From Ignisphaera sp. (GTDB taxonomy: Archaea; Thermoproteota; Thermoprotei_A; Sulfolobales; Ignisphaeraceae): a DNA stretch of 64,000 nucleotides. The position numbers and the translations under genes are program-made. Of this stretch, positions 6,956-49,614 are shown in pieces (within the stretch, counting starts at the first letter, position 1; each line of letters starts with the position of its first letter). Location: assembly GCA_038892955.1 (NCBI GenBank), contig JAWASI010000001.1:48841-112840 (forward strand), given 5' to 3'. The notes beneath the pieces are model-generated. The model was not told the DNA's origin. It saw only the letters and a list, made by a program, of their open reading frames with translations, and ran no database searches.

Positions 6956-9900
6956 TTATTTTGCTAGGGCTCTTGATATAGCTATTGTTGCATATATAGC
7001 TGCTGCAGCTGCAATAACAGCAAATACTAGAGCTACTACAACTAATGTTCTTAAGGTTCCTACACCATCGTCGACTGATACTATCTTTGAATCAATATTC
7101 GTTAATCTACCTACTGTATCAGCTCTAAATGCTCCGAGATCAGATCTAATCGCATCGATACCTGTTCTAACATCTGTTATACTAGCTCCAACACTGTTTA
7201 CAATACTTACAACATTACCGATATCTGCTCTAACCCCTGTTACATCTGTTCTTAGACCAGATACATCTGTTCTTAATTTCTCTATTTCGCTTCTTGCCTG
7301 CGATAATGCTGCAAGTGCAGACTCTACACTACTCTTTACGTCATTTACTGCGTTCTTTACATCACCTAGAGCAGGTTCTAATGCTTTCAATGCATTTAGA
7401 GCAGTTTGTAGAGCTTGTAGTGTCTTTATGGCTTCGTCTAGATCTGATGATAGTACATCTAGCTTCCTGAGTACCTCTGATAGCGCTTGTACATCGCTCT
7501 TTGTTGCAACTACAGTTCTGAGATCACTTACAGCTACAGCTACGTTGTTTACAGCTGATGTAACTGCAGCTATAGCGGTTGTCATTGACGTGGTCAGTAT
7601 CTTTATATCTGTTTTGTTAGCCATATTAGCGGATACAAACTTGCTAAGGCTATCAATCGCTGTTTTTAGCTCAGTTGCCCTAGTATTAATTAAGTTTTCA
7701 AGCGCGGTCCTTAACGGTGCGAGTGCTTCTTGAGCACCAACTGCTGCACTGCGTGCAGCTTCTACAGCACTTGCTATGGCATCTAATCTGCTTAATATAG
7801 CACTCCTAAGTGCTTCGATATCAGATTTCGTTGCTACCTTGCTTAAGTTGTTTATAACGAATACGCTACCTGGTAATGTGCTTTTAACTTCATTTCCTAC
7901 AACATATAGGAGCTTTATCTCGTAAGCTCCTGGCTCTAGAGCAGGTATGTAGAGACCTGGCACTATATCTTTGCTGTAGGTATTAATCAGTACACCTCTT
8001 TCATCTGCACTCCATCTCTGAACCTGTGTATTGAGTACAAATGCTGCATCGGTATTATTCACTAACATACCAACGAATGATACACCTGGTCTAAAGCCTG
8101 TTCCTAGTACTCTTACGAATCCTGGTCCAACAAGTACCGGTAAGTAGTATTTGCTTAAGTCTAGGAGTAATATTTTAGGTCTAACCATAACAGGTCTTGT
8201 AATGAACCTTGTTCCATTGAAGTAGTCAGTTATTGTTATGCTACCGCTAACAGTTCCAACAGCTACTATTACATAATCGCCTTCTGGTACTGTTGGCACT
8301 ATGAAGGATACCTCAACTGTTGAAGCATTCGCTTTAACAGTTCTTATCGGTGTTCCTCCGAAGTATATTGTGAATGTTTCTCCAGGTGAAGCCCCTGATA
8401 TAACCACCTTTATTTCATCACCTAGGTAATCACAGCGTCCAACGTAAGTTACGCATTTAGCACAGTAGCTTAAGCCCACAATTGTTTCTGGACATGGGCA
8501 TACCATTACTCTCCTATTATCGTAACCTGCGCTAACTATAGGTTCCTTTGGTACTGTATATGGTGGTACTGGTACTATTGTATAGTATGCTCTAGCGCCG
8601 ATTATTATTGCCAGCGTGTATTCATAGCCCCATTTATCGACACCCCATATATAGTGTACACCGAATGTCGCATCAGACGGTATTGTTACGGTGAATGTTC
8701 TATTACCATCTTTACCTAATTTAACTGTGGCTAATCTTACTATTTTCTCCCAATACACATCTAGGTAGTTATCATCTTGTCCTGGCGGTATATGTTTCCA
8801 GAAAGCACCTGGTGCATAACCATAGGCCGCTATGGTAACTGTTTGTCCAGGTAGTACCGGTAAGGGTGTTAGAAGGACTAGCAATGGTCTTACAATATAG
8901 TATACGTTTCTGAATTCAAAGCTAGGTCCAGCAAGAGGTCTTCCTGTAACTGTTAGAGTAGCTGTTGTTGGTGTATATGTCCAGCTTATTGTCCACTCAA
9001 TCCCTGCATCTGTAAATCTTAATGTCGGTATTGTTATTGATGTATCTGTAACGCTCATGTTTGTTGGAAATACGTAGAACCTTGAGACAGTTACACCTGT
9101 ATCCCTATTCGTATATACTACTGTCAAGTTAGCTCTAGTAACTGCAAACCTCCATTCTCTTAATACTAATAGTATCTGGTTAGTATAGTTATAGAAAGTA
9201 GCCCAATACCTGTAGGCACCTGGGGTTGGAGGTGCTGTAAGGTCATAACTTAGCGGCACTATGTTAAACGACACATTAGCTGTGTAAGCATCTAGGGCAG
9301 CGTTATATGTCGTCGGAGCTGTGCCAGAGAACAATGTTACGTATGGAATAGTTGTTATATTATATAGCGAAAATCTTATCATATTTCCTTCAATATTTGC
9401 TGCTAACTGGTATATCTTACCGGCATATGTAATGTTTATTCTAAGCACTTCAGTCTTTACAAAAGCCATTCTAGATGCTGTAACTACGTAATCTAGCGCT
9501 CCATCAACAAATGAAGTAGCTCTTATAGATGCTCTAGTACCAAGCGCACCCACGATTGCTGTCTCTGATATGGTAACTGTTCCTATTGCTCTAAGAGCTA
9601 TTGTTGAGGTATTCGTTAACGTTCTAGGTAATGGTGCTTCGTAGACTATAGGTATATATAGACCAGCTGTCATGTTGGTTCCTCTTCCACCCCCAGTATA
9701 TGGTCTTAGATTTGTCAACGTGAAGTAACCATTGGCATTGGTACCAAAACCTGTTGGTGGTGTAAATGTGTATCTAACATTTGTGAAGTTGATATTCCAG
9801 AGGTCAATCCTCACTATGGCGACACTAGGACTAAAACCATAGCCAGTGATAGTTATAGCCACGAGATCGCATACAGAGGCATCGCATCTACCATTACTTT

Positions 9901-43234: not shown

Positions 43235-44389
43235 TTACTCTAGTAGCTCTGTTCTAACTTTTGGCCCTTTCACTTGGTAAAGTTTAGATTCTACAAATCT
43301 ATCCTGTAGCCTCTGTAATACTTGCGGTAATGTCGTGTATTCCATTTCTTCAGGTCCTAATCTATGCGGCATGAAGGGTCCATGTCTTCTCATGTATTCT
43401 GCTACTATTTGAGCTAATCTCCTTGTTTCATCAAATGCCGGGTCATCAAATAAATCAGCTGGACCTATTAATCTTCCATTCTTTATCTGGAATCCTAGTG
43501 CTACAACCCTAGGTGGACCATCAAATCGAGTGCACCTTGCATTACGTTGACCTACGGGCATTAATGGACCGAAGTGACTACCCCTCATCCATCCAGCTAC
43601 AAGGTGTGGGAATGCGAATGCCTCAATTACTTCTCCAACTGCTGGGAACCCTGATTGCGCTCTAACAATTGCTACAGGATCGTCTTTCCCTACATACTGT
43701 CCTGCTATTAGGTTCAATCTTTCTACTGCTACAACTGCTGCGATTTCATTGTCGCTTTTCCTGAATATTCTTCTTACAACAAATCTTCCAGGTGTTCCTA
43801 TAAGAGCTAAAAGGTCATACATTTCTTCAGGAGCATTCATAACAACATATTTACCAGCTATAACGTCATAAACCTCGAATTTAAAGCCGTCGTGTAGTTT
43901 AGGATCAATAACTAAGCCGGCGGTGTTAAAGGGATCAGCGAATACTCTAAAGAGCGGTAAATTGAATGCCCCAGGTTCTGTTTTATCAGCCATGAATACT
44001 ATTACAGGTTCTGAAGGTCTTTCAACAAATTCCATCTCAGCAGCAGAAGGTCCTAATCCTCTAACGTTTCCCGAGAATGCATCTGTTAAGAGATCTTGTC
44101 CTGCAGCATAAAGTCCTAGTTCTTTAGCTATCTTAGCTGCTTCTTTGAATGCATTCCAAGCTACTTCGTGGACTTCTGGTGAGTCAACTCCTTTTCTATG
44201 CGTCATTATAAGCTCAAGGTCGTCGCCAACATGAGTAACATAGTAATCAACTATAATGCCTTTACTCTTTGCTTCAGCTAAAACCTTAGCAGCCGCCGCC
44301 ATTGTATCGGGATGTACTATATGGTGGCCCGCAAGCGAGCCTATATCTGCTTTAATAACGGATAATGTTGTTTTTAGTTTTTCACTCAT
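43235..44389 (-). CDS. fbp: Fructose-1,6-bisphosphate aldolase/phosphatase
   Basis: KADIG, GDD, GQDLL, YVGKDDP, GWMRGSH. Confidence 0.97.
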   Translation of the reverse strand: MSEKLKTTLSVIKADIGSLAGHHIVHPDTMAAAAKVLAEAKSKGIIVDYYVTHVGDDLELIMTHRKGVDSPEVHEVAWNAFKEAAKIAKELGLYAAGQDLLTDAFSGNVRGLGPSAAEMEFVERPSEPVIVFMADKTEPGAFNLPLFRVFADPFNTAGLVIDPKLHDGFKFEVYDVIAGKYVVMNAPEEMYDLLALIGTPGRFVVRRIFRKSDNEIAAVVAVERLNLIAGQYVGKDDPVAIVRAQSGFPAVGEVIEAFAFPHLVAGWMRGSHFGPLMPVGQRNARCTRFDGPPRVVALGFQIKNGRLIGPADLFDDPAFDETRRLAQIVAEYMRRHGPFMPHRLGPEEMEYTTLPQVLQRLQDRFVESKLYQVKGPKVRTELLE

Positions 44390-44497
44390 TGAGATAACCC
44401 TGTATCCTATTTCTGAATTAAATAAAAATAAATTTTGCTAATATATCGAGTTTAACTGCATATAAAAAGTTGCCCCAGTAGGTGTTATAATTTAGAT

Positions 44498-46309
44498 TTA
44501 CTCTATATAGAAATATTGTCCAAGGGATTTTTGGTATCTATCTAAATAACTATCTGGTTTATTTATCCTAGGCCTACCCGAATGGACATCTCTTCTCATT
44601 GTTATATTAAGTTCTTTTAAGAAGATATTAAAAGATTTTGCAACAGTACCTGGACTAATACCATATCCCTTAACACCGGGTAAACCCGTGAATATCATAA
44701 GCCTGTCAACCGCATAGTCTATTAAAAGCACATTGTGGTCCACTACAAATATTGATGCTTTTCTTATTCTAGCTGTTCTCTTTATTACTCTAGAGACTGT
44801 TAATTGATCCTCGACATCTATATGTGAAGAAGGTTCATCGAGCAGATATACGTCTGCATCTTTTATCAATGTATATGCTATATAAAATTTCTGAAGCTCG
44901 CCTCCGCTAAGTATTGATATTTCTTTATGTAACAATTTGTCTACTCCTAACTTCGTAATAACTTCCGTGTATAACCAATGATTCTCATTAAATGCTTCTT
45001 TATTAGATTTTTTTAAGCACTCTTCAACAGTTATACAATCAGGCATCTGTCTATGCAAATACTGTGGTTTATAGCTTAACTCAAAAGCTGCTGTAGTAGT
45101 ATACCCTTCATCAGGCTGAAGCTCGCCTGCTAAGATTCTAATAAATGTTGTTTTACCTATACTATTAGGCCCCACAATACCTATTACTTCGCCTCGACGT
45201 ATTTCCCCTGGTTCTACAGTAAGTTCAAATCCATTGATATGCTTTTTTATAGTACTCCAAGAACACATCACCTCACCTAATTCAGCCTCTACGTCTTGTC
45301 GCGATTCATGAAGTCTAAACGTGATACCTTCGTCCCTAATCCTAACATTTTCTGAAGGTAGGTACCCCTTAAGATAATGATCTATACCAGTATTTGTTGC
45401 ATAAGGGTTAGAGAACATACCGTATACCCCTGGAATACCATATGTAACAACGACGAGGTCTGCCACATAGTCTATGAATGTTAGATCATGGTCTACGACG
45501 ATCACGTATTTAGTTCTGGGTATTAGTTCATCCAACGCCCTCGCAAGAGCTAACCTTTCTCTAACATCAAGATAACTTGTAGGTTCATCAAAAATGTATA
45601 CATCGCCTTCTCTAGCTAGTGTAGCTGCTATAGCTAGCTTCTGTAACTCGCCTCCACTTAGAATAGATATATCTTTATCTACCATTCGCTCCATGTTAAG
45701 GAGCGATATAATCTCCCGAAAAATCTTACGTTCATCAACTTTAAATAGTATACTCTTAACATCCCCTTTCACGTACTTTGGTATGTACTCTATGTATTGT
45801 ATTTTATGTATTACCCTTAGTTTGTTGAAATACAAATCATTAAAGTATGTATAGAGTTGGGTTCCCTTGAATCGATTTAAGACATAGTCCTTTACCGGCT
45901 CAGAGTTGAAAACACCAAAATTAGGTATTAAACTCCCTGATAATATTTTTAAAGCTGTTGTTTTTCCAGCACCATTAGGTCCTATAACAGCAATAAACTT
46001 CCCTTTAATAGGTGTAGGTAACCCATACAATTTAAATGCATTAGGCCCGTATCTATGAATTAATTTCTCCTCTACCTCTTCTGGAAGATTTACTATACTT
46101 ATGGCTTTGAAAGGGCATTTTTTAACACATATACCGCAAGCTATACACTTATCTTCATAGATAATAGGTTTACCTTTTTTCTGCTCACCTAACTCTATGG
46201 CTTTGTACGGTTTCGTTTTATTTATAGGGCAGAATCTAATGCAGGGGATTCCACATTTATTTGGATTACAGAGCTCATAATCTATTGTTGCAACTCTAAC
46301 CATGTTCAC
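44498..46309 (-). CDS. Ribosome recycling ATPase ABCE1 (Rli1)
   Basis: N-terminal 2x[4Fe-4S] Cys motifs, YGPNAFKL, two ABC domains. Confidence 0.96.
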   Translation of the reverse strand: MNMVRVATIDYELCNPNKCGIPCIRFCPINKTKPYKAIELGEQKKGKPIIYEDKCIACGICVKKCPFKAISIVNLPEEVEEKLIHRYGPNAFKLYGLPTPIKGKFIAVIGPNGAGKTTALKILSGSLIPNFGVFNSEPVKDYVLNRFKGTQLYTYFNDLYFNKLRVIHKIQYIEYIPKYVKGDVKSILFKVDERKIFREIISLLNMERMVDKDISILSGGELQKLAIAATLAREGDVYIFDEPTSYLDVRERLALARALDELIPRTKYVIVVDHDLTFIDYVADLVVVTYGIPGVYGMFSNPYATNTGIDHYLKGYLPSENVRIRDEGITFRLHESRQDVEAELGEVMCSWSTIKKHINGFELTVEPGEIRRGEVIGIVGPNSIGKTTFIRILAGELQPDEGYTTTAAFELSYKPQYLHRQMPDCITVEECLKKSNKEAFNENHWLYTEVITKLGVDKLLHKEISILSGGELQKFYIAYTLIKDADVYLLDEPSSHIDVEDQLTVSRVIKRTARIRKASIFVVDHNVLLIDYAVDRLMIFTGLPGVKGYGISPGTVAKSFNIFLKELNITMRRDVHSGRPRINKPDSYLDRYQKSLGQYFYIE

Positions 46310-46397
46310 ACCTCAAGAAAAAATTTGTCCTGATTTTTCTTTACTCCTATGGACATTAGGATATACTAGTATTAGTAAAAATAATTCGAAATATAGA

Positions 46398-46481
46398 TTA
46401 CCATTCTTCTTCTTCCCACTCTTCCTCTTCCCATTCTTCTTCTTCCCACTCTTCCTCTTCCCATTCTTCTTCAAACATCAT
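46398..46481 (-). CDS. 27-aa acidic/Trp repeat micro-protein MMFEEEW(EEEEW)4
   Basis: AGGTGA SD 6 nt before ATG ATG, TAA stop; repeat units vary only at synonymous GAA/GAG positions. Confidence 0.75.
   Translation of the reverse strand: MMFEEEWEEEEWEEEEWEEEEWEEEEW
46401..46472. repeat. Tandem repeat, 30-bp unit x2.4 (15-bp subunits)
   Basis: ccattcttcttcttcccactcttcctcttc repeated. Confidence 0.95.
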
Positions 46482-46618
46482 ATGACTTCACCTATGTTAG
46501 CTTAGATTGCGGGGAATTAAAAATATTTCTAATAATTATCTAAAATAAAGTTAAACAAAATGAGCAACGTTCTGTATTTCTATTAAGCATATTAACAGTA
46601 TTTTTATTAATCATAAAG

Positions 46619-47155
46619 TTAACTTCTGATAAATATATCTCCACATCCTATAATTCCTAGAGATATTTTTTGGTATTTACCTATGGCGGTATCCTTATTG
46701 AGGTTTACGTTAATATGATGTTTTATTATTTCTAAGTATATATTTGAAACATCTTCGATATTAGGTTTAGGTGCAAATCTGCAGTAGACGTTATAGCCTA
46801 AGAAGCTGTTCAAGCATTCTTCAACATGGGGAGAAGCGTCATCACTATGACTTAATATTATCAACCTTATATTCGGGTGGCATCTAATGTTTGCTAAATA
46901 CTCATTTAATATATGATGTAATTGTCGTTCAGCGAAAAACCTTATGTAAAATTCAAGCTCTGGTTTTCGAGCTATGGTTTTTCTGTTTTCAATTGCTTTC
47001 AACATATTAATGAAAGCTAAAGTAAGTTCTCGCCACATAGCATTAATTCCTTGTACAAGAATACACTGGTTAATATTATGGTAACACTTCTTTAAATAGT
47101 TACATATGTTAATAGCGGGCTCTTTGTTACATAATATATAGGCTATGGTAATCAT
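46619..47155 (-). CDS. KEOPS complex Cgi121-like subunit
   Basis: KAIENRKTIARKPELEF...AERQL resembles the Cgi121 core. Confidence 0.6.
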   Translation of the reverse strand: MITIAYILCNKEPAINICNYLKKCYHNINQCILVQGINAMWRELTLAFINMLKAIENRKTIARKPELEFYIRFFAERQLHHILNEYLANIRCHPNIRLIILSHSDDASPHVEECLNSFLGYNVYCRFAPKPNIEDVSNIYLEIIKHHINVNLNKDTAIGKYQKISLGIIGCGDIFIRS

Positions 47156-47445
47156 TGTATTCCTCCATGTACTATTGGTAGAAATATTATTTCATCGCTA
47201 TTTCTTATCTTTACTTTACTAATATCACCATATACATTAATATCGATGCCATTAATTAATACAAGGTATTCGCCGGAGTACTCTGTAATATTCTTTATAA
47301 TAGTTTGGAATTCTGGATACAGGTTAACAAGTTTATCCAGGAAATTCATCAATGATTCTTCGTCTTCGATAGCTATTTCAATTTCGTTTAAACCAAATCT
47401 AGTTCTAAGATAACCTAGGAGCTTCACCTTAGCTATGATTCTCAC
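47152..47445 (-). CDS. MoaD/ThiS/SAMP ubiquitin-like sulfur carrier
   Basis: VLING, DEIIFLPIVHGG followed by IQ. Confidence 0.88.
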   Translation of the reverse strand: MRIIAKVKLLGYLRTRFGLNEIEIAIEDEESLMNFLDKLVNLYPEFQTIIKNITEYSGEYLVLINGIDINVYGDISKVKIRNSDEIIFLPIVHGGIQ

Positions 47446-47458
47446 ACCTTATAATAAA

Positions 47459-47502
47459 TTACCTATTTTACCTATTCTTTTTACCTATTTTACCTATTCT
47501 TT
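47459..47502. repeat. Perfect 22-bp tandem duplication
   Basis: ttacctattttacctattcttt x2. Confidence 0.9.
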
Positions 47503-47706
47503 GCTTTCTCGTTGTGAGTGCTGCATTATTTTTACTAAGTGTGTTACATAACCTGCTATTTGATTTCTTACTTTTTTTGAGTATGTAGTACAAAGTTTTG
47601 ATACAATTTGCTTATTATGTTCAAAATCAGTATTAAATATATTAGGATACATAGCTAAAAGTTTTCTAGCTGTACGTTTCACCAAGCTTATCCTCACCTT
47701 GCCCAC
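47494..47706 (-). CDS. rps17e: 30S ribosomal protein S17e
   Basis: MGKVRISLVKRTA...DFEHNK...SKKVRNQIAGYVT. Confidence 0.96.
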   Translation of the reverse strand: MGKVRISLVKRTARKLLAMYPNIFNTDFEHNKQIVSKLCTTYSKKVRNQIAGYVTHLVKIMQHSQRESKE

Positions 47707-47946
47707 AGTATTGCACCTTGTTCGATTTATTGCTGCATTGAATTTGTGTTAACTATAGTACCTATGTAAGGCTTTTAGCTTTAAAAGTTTACATTAAGTT
47801 GCTAATATATGGTTTACATGTATAAGCATATCATGAATAACGCTAGAATATGCATATTTAGCTATCTCATTGATAGAAGATGGTTTTGCGATTTCCATTA
47901 AGATTTATATAGAACCTCACTAAGTGAACCTGTTTTGGTGTTGAGT

Positions 47947-49614
47947 ATGGCACAGGTAGGACCATATGAAGCTACAGGTATACCCGTAATCATACTAAAA
48001 GAAGGTTCCAGTAGAACAACGGGGCGTGACGCTCTTAGAGCTAATTTGATGGCGGCTATAGCTATTACTGAAATAGTAAAAACGACGTATGGACCTAGGG
48101 GTATGGACAAGATGCTAGTTGATGCACTAGGCGACATAACTATAACTAACGATGGTGCAACAATTCTTGACAAGATGGATGTTCAACATCCTGCAGCGAA
48201 ACTACTTGTTCAAATAGCTAAAGGGCAGGATGAGGAAGCAGGTGATGGTACCAAAACTGTTGTTATAATTGCTGGTGAACTACTCAAAAAAGCAGAAGAT
48301 CTTATAGAAAAAGGGCTTCACCCAACTATTATAGTTAATGGTTATAAGAAAGCCCTTGATTATGCGTTAAAAGTTGCATATGAGTTAGCTGAAGATGTTA
48401 ATGTAGACGATCCCTTAGCTGACGAAGTTTTGAAGAAGGTTGCTGTATCCTCGTTGACCAGCAAGGCTGTTCACGGTGCAAGAGACTACTTGTCAGAACT
48501 TGTTGTTAAAGCTGTCAGACAAGTTGCTGAGAAAAGAGGTGATAGATGGTATGTTGATTTAGATAATGTACAGATAGTTAAGAAAAAAGGAGGAGGACTC
48601 CTAGATACACAGCTAGTGTATGGTATAGTTCTCGATAAAGAGGTTGTTCACCCTGCTATGCCTAGAAGAGTTGAAAACGCTAAAATAGCCTTAATTGATG
48701 CACCACTAGAAATCGAGAAGCCTGAAATAGACGCAGAGATAAGAATTAGCGATCCTACACAAATGCGCAAGTTCTTAGAAGAGAAAGAAAATATATTACG
48801 TAGTTATGTAGAAAAGATAGTTAGTATTGGTGCTAATGTTGTTATATGCCAGAAAGGTATAGACGATGTGGCGCAGCATTACCTAGCTAAGAAGGGAATT
48901 CTAGCTGTTAGAAGAGTTAAGAGAAGTGATATGGAGAAACTTGAGAGGGCTTCAGGAGGTAGGATAGTCAGCAATATAGAGGATCTATCAGAAAAAGACT
49001 TGGGTATATGTGGATTAGTTGAAGAGAGGAAAGTTGGTGAAGATAAAATGGTGTTTATTGAGAACTGTAAGAACCCAAGATCAGTAGCTATAGTCTTAAG
49101 GGCTGGCCTAGAGAGACTAGTTGATGAAGCTGAGAGGTATACAAGAGATGCCTTAAGCGCAGTTGCTGATGTATTTAGACTTCCAAAGGTTGTATATGGT
49201 GCAGGTGCATTTGAGATAGAGTTGGCTAAGCATCTAAGGGAGTACGCCAATAAAGTAGGGGGTAAGGAAGGATTAGCTGTGGAAGCTTTCGCTAAAGCAC
49301 TTGAGGGAATAGTGGAGACTCTAGCAACAAATGCTGGATTAGACCCTGTAGAAATCATAATGAAGCTTAGAGCAGCTCATATGAAATTTGATGGAAAGTG
49401 GGTAGGTCTAGACGTATTCACAGGCGAGCTTATAGACTCCAAGGAGAAAGGGATTATTGATCCACTTCTAGTTAAGATATCAGCATTGAAGGCAGGTACA
49501 GAAGCTGCAACATTAATACTTAGAATAGATGATGTTATAGCTGCTTCAAAGAGAAAAGAGGAAGAGAAGAAGAAAGAAGAAAAGAAAGAAGAGGAAGAAA
49601 AAGAGAAGGATTAA
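47947..49614 (+). CDS. Thermosome (group II chaperonin) subunit, probably beta
   Basis: [22 protein letters not shown], charged C-terminal tail. Confidence 0.96.

Follow-up and report, generated by a model that had tools for sequence, protein, structure and literature searches.

Few proteins of archaea and eukaryotes are as conserved and essential as ABCE1. In archaea, the set of its partners, which comprises aRF1, aPelota, the stalk, and the 30S subunit, is considered to be known. The window analyzed here is a 64,000-nucleotide stretch of a contig from Ignisphaera sp. (JAWASI010000001.1, positions 48,841 to 112,840). Directly upstream of its ABCE1 gene, the window contains a short repetitive tract, which reads on the minus strand as an open reading frame consisting almost entirely of Glu and Trp codons. 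The locus raises the question of whether such a tract is a gene and, if it is, whether its product takes part in ribosome recycling or its translation serves to control the expression of ABCE1. As a concrete candidate for either a new component of ribosome recycling or a new regulator of it, the micro-gene described here is open to direct tests. With its putative function, it points to an unrecognized small player in archaeal protein synthesis. A gene of 24–30 codons is below the length limits of gene callers and is filtered as low-complexity sequence, and therefore it escaped annotation.

Organization of the ABCE1 locus

The minus strand of the window encodes, in the order of reading, a Urm1/ThiS-like protein, a 178-residue ORF, the micro-ORF, ABCE1, FBPase, and TIM. 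The thermosome gene is positioned upstream of this group, on the plus strand. The features of the locus discussed below are:

44498-46303, minus strand: ABCE1, ribosome-recycling ATPase of 601 residues, 47–89% identical to ABCE1 of all 40 relatives
46309-46314, minus strand: Shine-Dalgarno sequence GAGGTG of ABCE1, identified from the sequence
46318-46323, minus strand: T6 run just upstream of the ABCE1 Shine-Dalgarno sequence, conserved in Ignisphaera
46377-46381, minus strand: T5 run, candidate archaeal oligo-T terminator, 17 nt after the stop of the micro-ORF
46398-46481, minus strand: micro-protein ORF of 27 codons and TAA, M-M-F-E3W-(E4W)4, identified from the sequence, orthologs, and a codon-position test
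46488-46493, minus strand: Shine-Dalgarno sequence AGGTGA of the micro-ORF, 6 nt before the ATG
46517-46530, minus strand: BRE/TATA-like promoter element AGAAATATTTTTAA, an A-rich stretch and a TTTTTAA box (46523-46517)
46619-47155, minus strand: 178-residue ORF directly upstream of the micro-gene, without a Pfam family
47152-47445, minus strand: Urm1/ThiS-like gene of the window

The start of ABCE1 is assigned to the ATG at 46303, which aligns with the starts of the orthologs (MVRVATIDYELC), and the GTG at 46309 is the alternative. The cysteines of the Fe-S clusters and the Walker and signature motifs are invariant in the ABCE1 alignment. The original prediction placed the micro-ORF 88 nt from ABCE1. 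This distance is correct for a start at the GTG, whereas the gap to the ATG aligned with the orthologs is 94 nt. The 178-residue ORF has no detectable similarity to the 167-residue protein that neighbors the micro-gene in Staphylothermus-type loci.

The micro-ORF is composed of the codons ATG ATG TTT (GAA)3 TGG, followed by four 15-nt units of (GAR)4-TGG and a TAA stop. Reading the minus strand codon by codon at 46398-46481 confirmed the predicted unannotated Glu/Trp ORF of 27 residues and its shared orientation with ABCE1. In addition to M-M-F, the peptide contains 19 Glu and 5 Trp residues, which corresponds to about 70% Glu and a net charge of approximately −19. Members of the family to which it belongs have about 20–40 codons, almost only for Glu, with some Asp and three to six Trp. 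They typically start with M-(M/L/I/V)-(F/L/Y), end with two acidic residues and a Trp before the stop, and are located next to ABCE1 with a TATA box and a Shine-Dalgarno sequence of their own. The window ORF agrees with this description in its size, composition, start (M-M-F), end (EEEEW-TAA), signals, and position.

The Shine-Dalgarno sequence AGGTGA was found where it had been predicted, at 46493-46488, 6 nt before the ATG. Nearly all orthologs have GGTGA, GAGGTG, or GAGTGA 5–9 nt before the start. The TATA-like TTTTTAA is also present; its position is 46523-46517, and not 46518-46524 as given earlier. An A-rich stretch with a TTTWWA box recurs in the flanks of the orthologs at the same distance, about 30–45 nt before the ATG. 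When the archaeal TATA-to-start spacing is applied to the box of the window, the predicted transcript start of the micro-gene falls near 46494-46496, which would leave a leader of about 13 nt including the Shine-Dalgarno sequence.

The T5 run behind the micro-ORF is a putative terminator of the micro-gene. In 29 of 37 loci, a run of at least five T residues is found in the 70 nt that follow the stop, compared to 8% of all 70-nt windows of the same loci; the loci are related, and therefore the 29 cases are not independent. The T6 run in front of the Shine-Dalgarno sequence of ABCE1 may be either a second terminator or attenuator, or a promoter-proximal element.

Conservation of the micro-ORF and its linkage to ABCE1

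Two comparisons with different anchors were used to trace the micro-ORF in other genomes. The first was anchored on ABCE1 and not on the motif, and comprised 30 ABCE1 loci taken from 40 relatives. A Glu/Trp ORF of 24–30 codons is located immediately upstream of ABCE1, on the same strand, in 26 of the 30 loci. Its form in these loci is M-x-x-E3W...E4-6-WW-E5-W-E3-4-W-stop. All five sampled genomes of Sulfolobaceae have a more degenerate acidic/Trp ORF at the same place, and so do six further genomes.

The second comparison started from the motif, irrespective of ABCE1. A search for WWE5WE3 in a species-level genome collection identified 48 contigs from Ignisphaera, Desulfurococcaceae, Zestosphaera, and Staphylothermus, with ABCE1 immediately downstream of the motif in 43 of them. 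The more general pattern EEEEW-stop has matches in 156 of 401 Thermoproteota genomes, mostly one per genome, while the reversed pattern, which served as a control, matched about 14. Thirty of the EEEEW-stop matches were fetched, and 27 of these are positioned just upstream of ABCE1 genes, the products of which are only 42–50% identical to ABCE1 of the window. In a DPANN phylum, EEEEW-stop was found in only 3 of 301 genomes.

Both the ABCE1-anchored and the motif-anchored searches support the original claim of an unannotated, conserved gene of a polyanionic micro-protein linked to ABCE1. The expected orthologous ORFs with Shine-Dalgarno sequences are present in the relatives (26 of 30 ABCE1 loci). 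Nevertheless, synteny with ABCE1 is no proof of a physical or functional link. The family is missing, at least in a form that can be recognized, from several families of the same order and from large families of Thermoproteota (for example, 0 of 67, 0 of 63, and 0 of 24 genomes), all of which have ABCE1. Therefore, the micro-protein cannot be an obligatory partner of ABCE1 and would rather be an accessory one.

Coding signature of the micro-ORF

The tract could in principle be something other than a gene. As a homopurine repeat, it might have a role as DNA or RNA, for example by forming H-DNA, serving as a promoter spacer, or binding proteins as an RNA; it might also be a chance ORF in a repeat prone to slippage. 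The window copy has features in keeping with this, since it contains an exact 30-nt duplication and a homopurine tract of about 75 nt, in which the T of each TGG codon is the sole interruption. The variation among orthologs argues against it. We performed a codon-position test on a core of 22 ABCE1-anchored orthologs, which have 16 distinct DNA sequences. The third positions of Glu codons vary between A and G at eight of eight sites, whereas none of the 25 other sites is variable, and codon positions 1 and 2 are without any G-to-A or A-to-G change. The start, the Shine-Dalgarno sequence, and the stop are conserved, and TGG is strictly kept. All three stop codons are in use (TAG 10, TAA 9, and TGA 7 times), each of them right after the last residue. 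The lengths of the orthologs run from 24 to 30 codons, so that every insertion or deletion is one of whole codons, which bears out the expectation that the length of the repeat varies in multiples of three. In a few lineages, a transversion has replaced GAR with GAC (Asp), whereby the charge is retained.

A role of the tract as a structured leader RNA has no support from its predicted fold either. The segment 46285-46497 folds with a z-score of +0.88, which corresponds to no unusual structure, and a scan of positions 44000-48000 against Rfam gave no match. The pattern of substitutions in the aligned orthologs shows purifying selection at the level of the protein. We conclude that the micro-ORF is very probably a real coding gene, and we regard a non-coding or chance origin of the tract as extremely improbable. 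The family would thereby exemplify that micro-ORFs of extremely low complexity can be real genes.

The five other reading frames of the tract, among them a Lys/Arg-rich +1 frame and antisense frames rich in Phe, Ser, and Pro, were considered as candidates and rejected; in none of them is a start or stop kept across the orthologs.

Internal repeat of the window copy

TRF describes the repeat in the window as a 30-nt unit present in 2.4 copies with 100% identity. Such an exact repeat in the MAG assembly indicates that slippage or unequal recombination recently took place in the GAR tract. The duplication preserved the reading frame and the C-terminal end, and the Trp residues still number five. 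The original prediction emphasized that the 15-nt units differ only at synonymous positions. The observation is true as read; however, because of the recent 30-nt duplication, the synonymous differences between neighboring units amount to two differences that were copied, and the pattern within the window is weak evidence of selection when taken alone. The case for a gene rests on the other genomes and not on the repeat of the window. A pattern search for (E4W)2 in the 1.58-Mb assembly found no other occurrence.

The orthologs from Ignisphaeraceae and Desulfurococcaceae characteristically contain a central WW doublet (...E4-WW-E5-W...). Among about 70 copies from these two families, that of the window is the sole one without the doublet. 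In the closest relative (L002/L069), the ABCE1 of which is 89% identical to that of the window, the peptide reads E3W-E4-WW-E5-W-E6-W, and the promoter and the Shine-Dalgarno sequence are nearly identical to those of the window. The doublet is also missing from the members found in Sulfolobaceae and in other classes, and therefore it marks a subgroup and not the whole family. The Trp residues are separated by three to four Glu residues in the window copy and by four to eight in its relatives. The window copy is an atypical variant of the family, remodeled by the exact 30-nt duplication.

Gene order and the possibility of a leader ORF

The main rival to a gene with a trans-acting product is a cis-acting leader, in which translation of the Glu/Trp ORF would tune the expression of ABCE1. 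The position of the micro-ORF makes this worth considering, as it directly precedes ABCE1 in the same orientation in 26 of 30, 43 of 48, and 27 of 30 loci. The position in the window would fit a transcript shared with ABCE1, but the T5 run follows the stop of the micro-ORF. Furthermore, ABCE1 has its own Shine-Dalgarno sequence, as downstream cistrons in these archaea do, and the conserved T6 run is located just before it. Transcriptional attenuation at the T-run that separates the two ORFs could contribute as well.

A leader could operate in two ways. Termination at the Trp-stop might require ABCE1, in which case scarcity of ABCE1 would leave unrecycled ribosomes that reinitiate at the ABCE1 start, resulting in a negative feedback. 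Loss of Rli1/ABCE1 in yeast leads to reinitiation after stop codons, which fits this variant. Alternatively, the acidic N-terminal part of the nascent chain might destabilize the ribosome. N-terminal acidic runs are a known trigger of such intrinsic ribosome destabilization, the eukaryotic events of which bypass ABCE1 (PMC12673854), and the acidic N-terminal runs of the peptide resemble this trigger. The micro-ORF shares with MgtL-type destabilizing leaders, the trp leader, and TnaC the features of a short ORF in front of a gene, acidic N-terminal runs (PMC12673854), and several Trp codons. It differs from them in that it also occurs isolated from ABCE1, is followed by a terminator-like T-run of its own, and strictly prefers Glu over Asp.

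The gene orders in other lineages are difficult to reconcile with a leader. In Staphylothermus-type loci (L040, L048, and L070), ABCE1 points in one direction, and a zinc-ribbon gene and the micro-ORF behind it point in the other, followed by a convergent gene. In four more loci (L078, G033, G034, and G037), the micro-ORF and ABCE1 are divergent and 0.7–2.4 kb apart, and the sequence of the micro-ORF is intact. These arrangements rule out co-transcription of the micro-ORF and ABCE1 in at least seven lineages; in all seven loci, the micro-ORF precedes no co-oriented gene and yet is fully intact. Since the micro-ORF is divergent from ABCE1 or located behind the zinc-ribbon gene in several lineages, it cannot be only a leader of ABCE1.

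The loci with the common gene order provide additional arguments. The spacer between the micro-ORF and ABCE1 has a variable length of about 50–380 nt. In 22 Desulfurococcaceae-type loci, the spacer upstream of ABCE1 contains an antisense gene of a C/D box sRNA, which is located between the micro-ORF and ABCE1 in the examined loci L022, L029, and L030. A terminator-like run of at least five T residues often follows 1–30 nt after the stop of the micro-ORF. A destabilizing leader would accept Asp, whereas Glu is used almost exclusively in this order, and the positions of the Trp residues are fixed. The leader RNA also lacks a significant structure of the attenuator or anti-Shine-Dalgarno type (z-score +0.88), although some leader peptides need none. 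The gene orders, the sRNA gene in the spacer, and the lengths of the spacer favor a separately expressed peptide that would act in trans. We consider it rather unlikely that the micro-ORF, in either of the two variants, is primarily a leader; it may have an additional role in cis in lineages such as that of the window.

Putative role of the Glu/Trp peptide

We hypothesize that the tract is a stand-alone, translated micro-gene, and that its trans-acting polyanionic peptide is tied to the step of translation that involves ABCE1. Taken as a whole, this statement appears to us somewhat more probable than not. It builds on the gene signals, the purifying selection, the synteny with ABCE1 throughout the phylum, and the persistence of the gene where co-transcription is impossible. 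The transcription, translation, action in trans, target, and binding mode of the peptide are predictions from these observations.

The BRE/TATA promoter would direct the synthesis of a short mRNA, in which a leader of about 13 nt with a strong Shine-Dalgarno sequence precedes the ORF of 27 codons, and which would end at the oligo-T terminator. The product would begin with a short hydrophobic segment (M-M-F), continue with runs of Glu that separate the Trp residues, and end in a free acidic-Trp C-terminus. Because of its net charge near −19, the trans-acting peptide is expected to be intrinsically disordered and to bind only basic surfaces, cations, or polyamines. Runs of Glu would dock it on a basic surface, with the Trp side chains and the C-terminal Trp serving as anchors. 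Three features resemble anchors for a particular partner: the hydrophobic N-terminus, which is fixed, the Trp residues, and the free C-terminus with its acidic-Trp end. The variable number of Glu residues between the Trp residues (4–8) argues against a single rigid binding geometry. Since the synteny persists across the phylum, ABCE1 or its post-splitting complexes are the probable target: the peptide would bind ABCE1 itself, the post-splitting 30S-ABCE1 complex, or a factor joining that complex, and would modulate recruitment or release at the ABCE1-centered step.

A more specific version of this hypothesis, which we put forward tentatively, is that the peptide is a dedicated small subunit or regulator of archaeal ABCE1 and determines when ABCE1 is loaded onto the 30S subunit or released from it. 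For example, the peptide might cover the site used by the stalk or the basic surface of the Fe-S domain. A predicted complex of ABCE1 with the peptide scored 0.00, which is below the mark, for a partner that has fewer than 30 residues and is thus unlike the calibration set; this score counts neither for nor against binding. If the proposal is true, the peptide would be a missing recycling and initiation factor of Thermoproteota, possibly with a built-in feedback through its ABCE1-dependent stop.

It is also conceivable that the peptide is a general polyanion that acts apart from ABCE1, as a nucleic-acid mimic, a chaperone of basic ribosomal or chromatin proteins, or a buffer of cations or polyamines in hyperthermophiles, and that its position next to ABCE1 is historical. 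The composition of the peptide, with about 70% Glu and a net charge near −19, would suit such a function, and the variable spacing of the Trp residues is as expected of non-specific electrostatic binding. On one DPANN contig, a related ORF of 41 residues is positioned beside aIF1A instead of ABCE1, and many lineages that have ABCE1 are without the family. However, the synteny spans lineages with ABCE1 proteins only 42–50% identical and survives local inversions, which is difficult to account for unless the two are functionally linked. The fixed N-terminal motif of Met, a hydrophobic residue, and an aromatic residue, as well as the acidic-Trp C-terminus, also point to a specific partner. A function as a general polyanion is therefore improbable in our judgment.

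The hypothesis of an ABCE1-linked peptide is directly accessible at the bench, because relatives of the micro-gene occur in Sulfolobaceae, which include genetically tractable species, and because the peptide, with its built-in Trp fluorescence, can be synthesized.

Similarities to known acidic and Trp-containing modules

The peptide invites comparison with DSS1/Sem1, a small acidic disordered subunit of the proteasome lid, BRCA2, and TREX-2 complexes, which uses Trp residues as anchors on basic grooves of its partners. The two have in common their very small size, acidity, predicted disorder, and Trp anchors; in contrast, DSS1/Sem1 has about 70–90 residues, is eukaryotic, and has a more complex sequence. 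A Pfam scan of the peptide, the power of which is limited by the short length and biased composition of the query, returned no family, including DSS1/Sem1 (PF05160).

The acidic N-terminal motif of eIF3j/Hcr1 and the acidic/aromatic boxes of eIF5 and eIF2B-epsilon are Trp-bearing docking modules in translation. To our knowledge, archaea lack eIF3. These motifs are segments of large proteins, and the analogy with the peptide is a resemblance in composition only. On 40S complexes, eIF3j is reported to be located together with ABCE1 (PMC7780240).

In archaea, NBD1 of ABCE1 is the binding site for the C-terminal tail of the stalk protein aP1, which corresponds to eukaryotic P1/P2, and on the ribosome the tail activates the ATPase of ABCE1 (PMC6125642). 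Similarly to the peptide, the tail is flexible and strongly acidic and has a hydrophobic end. A free acidic peptide with aromatic anchors could therefore compete with the tail or mimic it. The tail is, however, part of a ribosomal protein of about 100 residues, and it binds through a Leu/Phe-rich motif at its extreme C-terminus instead of Trp (PMC6125642), whereas the peptide ends with E4-W. The likeness is limited to acidity.

The peptide might also be a helper of the Fe-S maturation of ABCE1, a counterpart in logic of eukaryotic Yae1-Lto1. In this case, an Fe-S delivery factor would read the acidic-Trp C-terminus, and the rest of the peptide would contact the Fe-S domain. We know of no archaeal counterpart of the CIA targeting complex, the eukaryotic receptor of such C-termini. 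ABCE1 of the window has two 4Fe-4S cysteine motifs. Eukaryotic Rli1/ABCE1 needs a dedicated adaptor, and the C-terminal Trp of this adaptor (Lto1) is essential (PMC4523923). More generally, CIA clients and adaptors end with the tripeptide [LIM]-[DES]-[WF]-COO- (PMC10245660), and nearly all family members end with E-W-COO-. The peptide thus resembles a helper of ABCE1/Rli1 that depends on a C-terminal Trp after an acidic residue (PMC4523923, PMC10245660). Nevertheless, its E-E-W end fits the tripeptide at positions −2 and −1 and not at −3, where it has Glu and not Leu, Ile, or Met. The peptide also lacks the deca-GX3 motif, and some members of the family end with E5 or EEF. We regard a function in Fe-S maturation as very improbable. 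Because the peptide does not have the defining features of the aP1 tail, Lto1, or the CIA clients, these are analogies and not memberships.

Searches in databases, literature, and sequencing reads

The exact peptide of the window is absent from a collection of 15 billion proteins according to an exact look-up. When ten family members were looked up in this manner, eight, including the Ignisphaera peptides, were absent, and two Sulfolobaceae forms of 34 residues were present. The only informative name of these deposited forms is 'hypothetical protein' (Sulfurisphaera javensis SJAV_12930 and S. ohwakuensis YN1HA_14170). A profile search with the 41-residue DPANN form yielded 325 word candidates, none of which scored, and the composition correction of HMMER probably removes such sequences. 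The best scores of a 30-residue ortholog in the ESM Atlas were 0.78–0.79, all to unnamed clusters, in a search that is blind to such composition. A Pfam scan of the window peptide found nothing.

Full-text literature searches found no paper describing such a family of Glu/Trp peptides, and the strings searched for in the supplements of the Sulfolobus acidocaldarius transcript atlas (PMC12817955) were not found there. The Glu/Trp micro-protein family beside ABCE1 is undescribed in the literature searched.

Three metatranscriptomes of the same study, sampled to 3–5% of their reads, contained 0, 0, and 1 matching reads, and the organism was not visible in them. The single read, from a hot-spring metatranscriptome (X3), matches part of the Glu/Trp repeat, at 46376-46479, with 95–99% identity, and continues into unlike sequence. 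It is probably derived from the ortholog of a relative and, being one read, carries no weight as evidence.

Additional elements in the window and in related loci

The C/D box sRNA gene found antisense upstream of ABCE1 has a length of about 55–60 nt. It is composed of a C box ATGATGA, an invariant guide GTGGTGACGG, a D'/C' pair, and a D box CTGA. The gene is present in L022 (3363-3425, plus strand), L029, L030, L036, L038, L041, L043, L047, and 14 more loci, and is absent from the window.

A protein of 94–95 residues with a single N-terminal zinc ribbon of the RPB9/TFS type is encoded between ABCE1 and the micro-ORF in Staphylothermus-type loci. Its Pfam matches are near the threshold. The positions of the zinc-ribbon gene are:

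L040, 871-1155, plus strand
L048, 3419-3706, minus strand
L070, 2178-2462, plus strand
L078, 659-946, plus strand

The ORF of 41 residues beside aIF1A is located at 7467-7592 on the minus strand of L062, a contig labeled Woesearchaeota. It ends with WW-E5-W-E3-W-E4-W and is positioned directly upstream of the aIF1A-like gene. An MBF1-like gene is nearby, and there is no ABCE1 within 8 kb. As the motif is rare in the phylum (3 of 301 genomes), transfer or mis-binning of this contig is possible.

Two other repeats are present in the window. Positions 47452-47502 contain four copies of ATAGGTAAAA, which TRF identified as an exact 22-nt tandem duplication. They are located directly upstream of a TATA-like box and the Shine-Dalgarno sequence of the Urm1/ThiS-like gene, and may be operator-like. 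The AAGA-rich tandem repeat at 49548-49610 on the plus strand encodes the Lys/Glu-rich C-terminal tail of the thermosome subunit and is ordinary.
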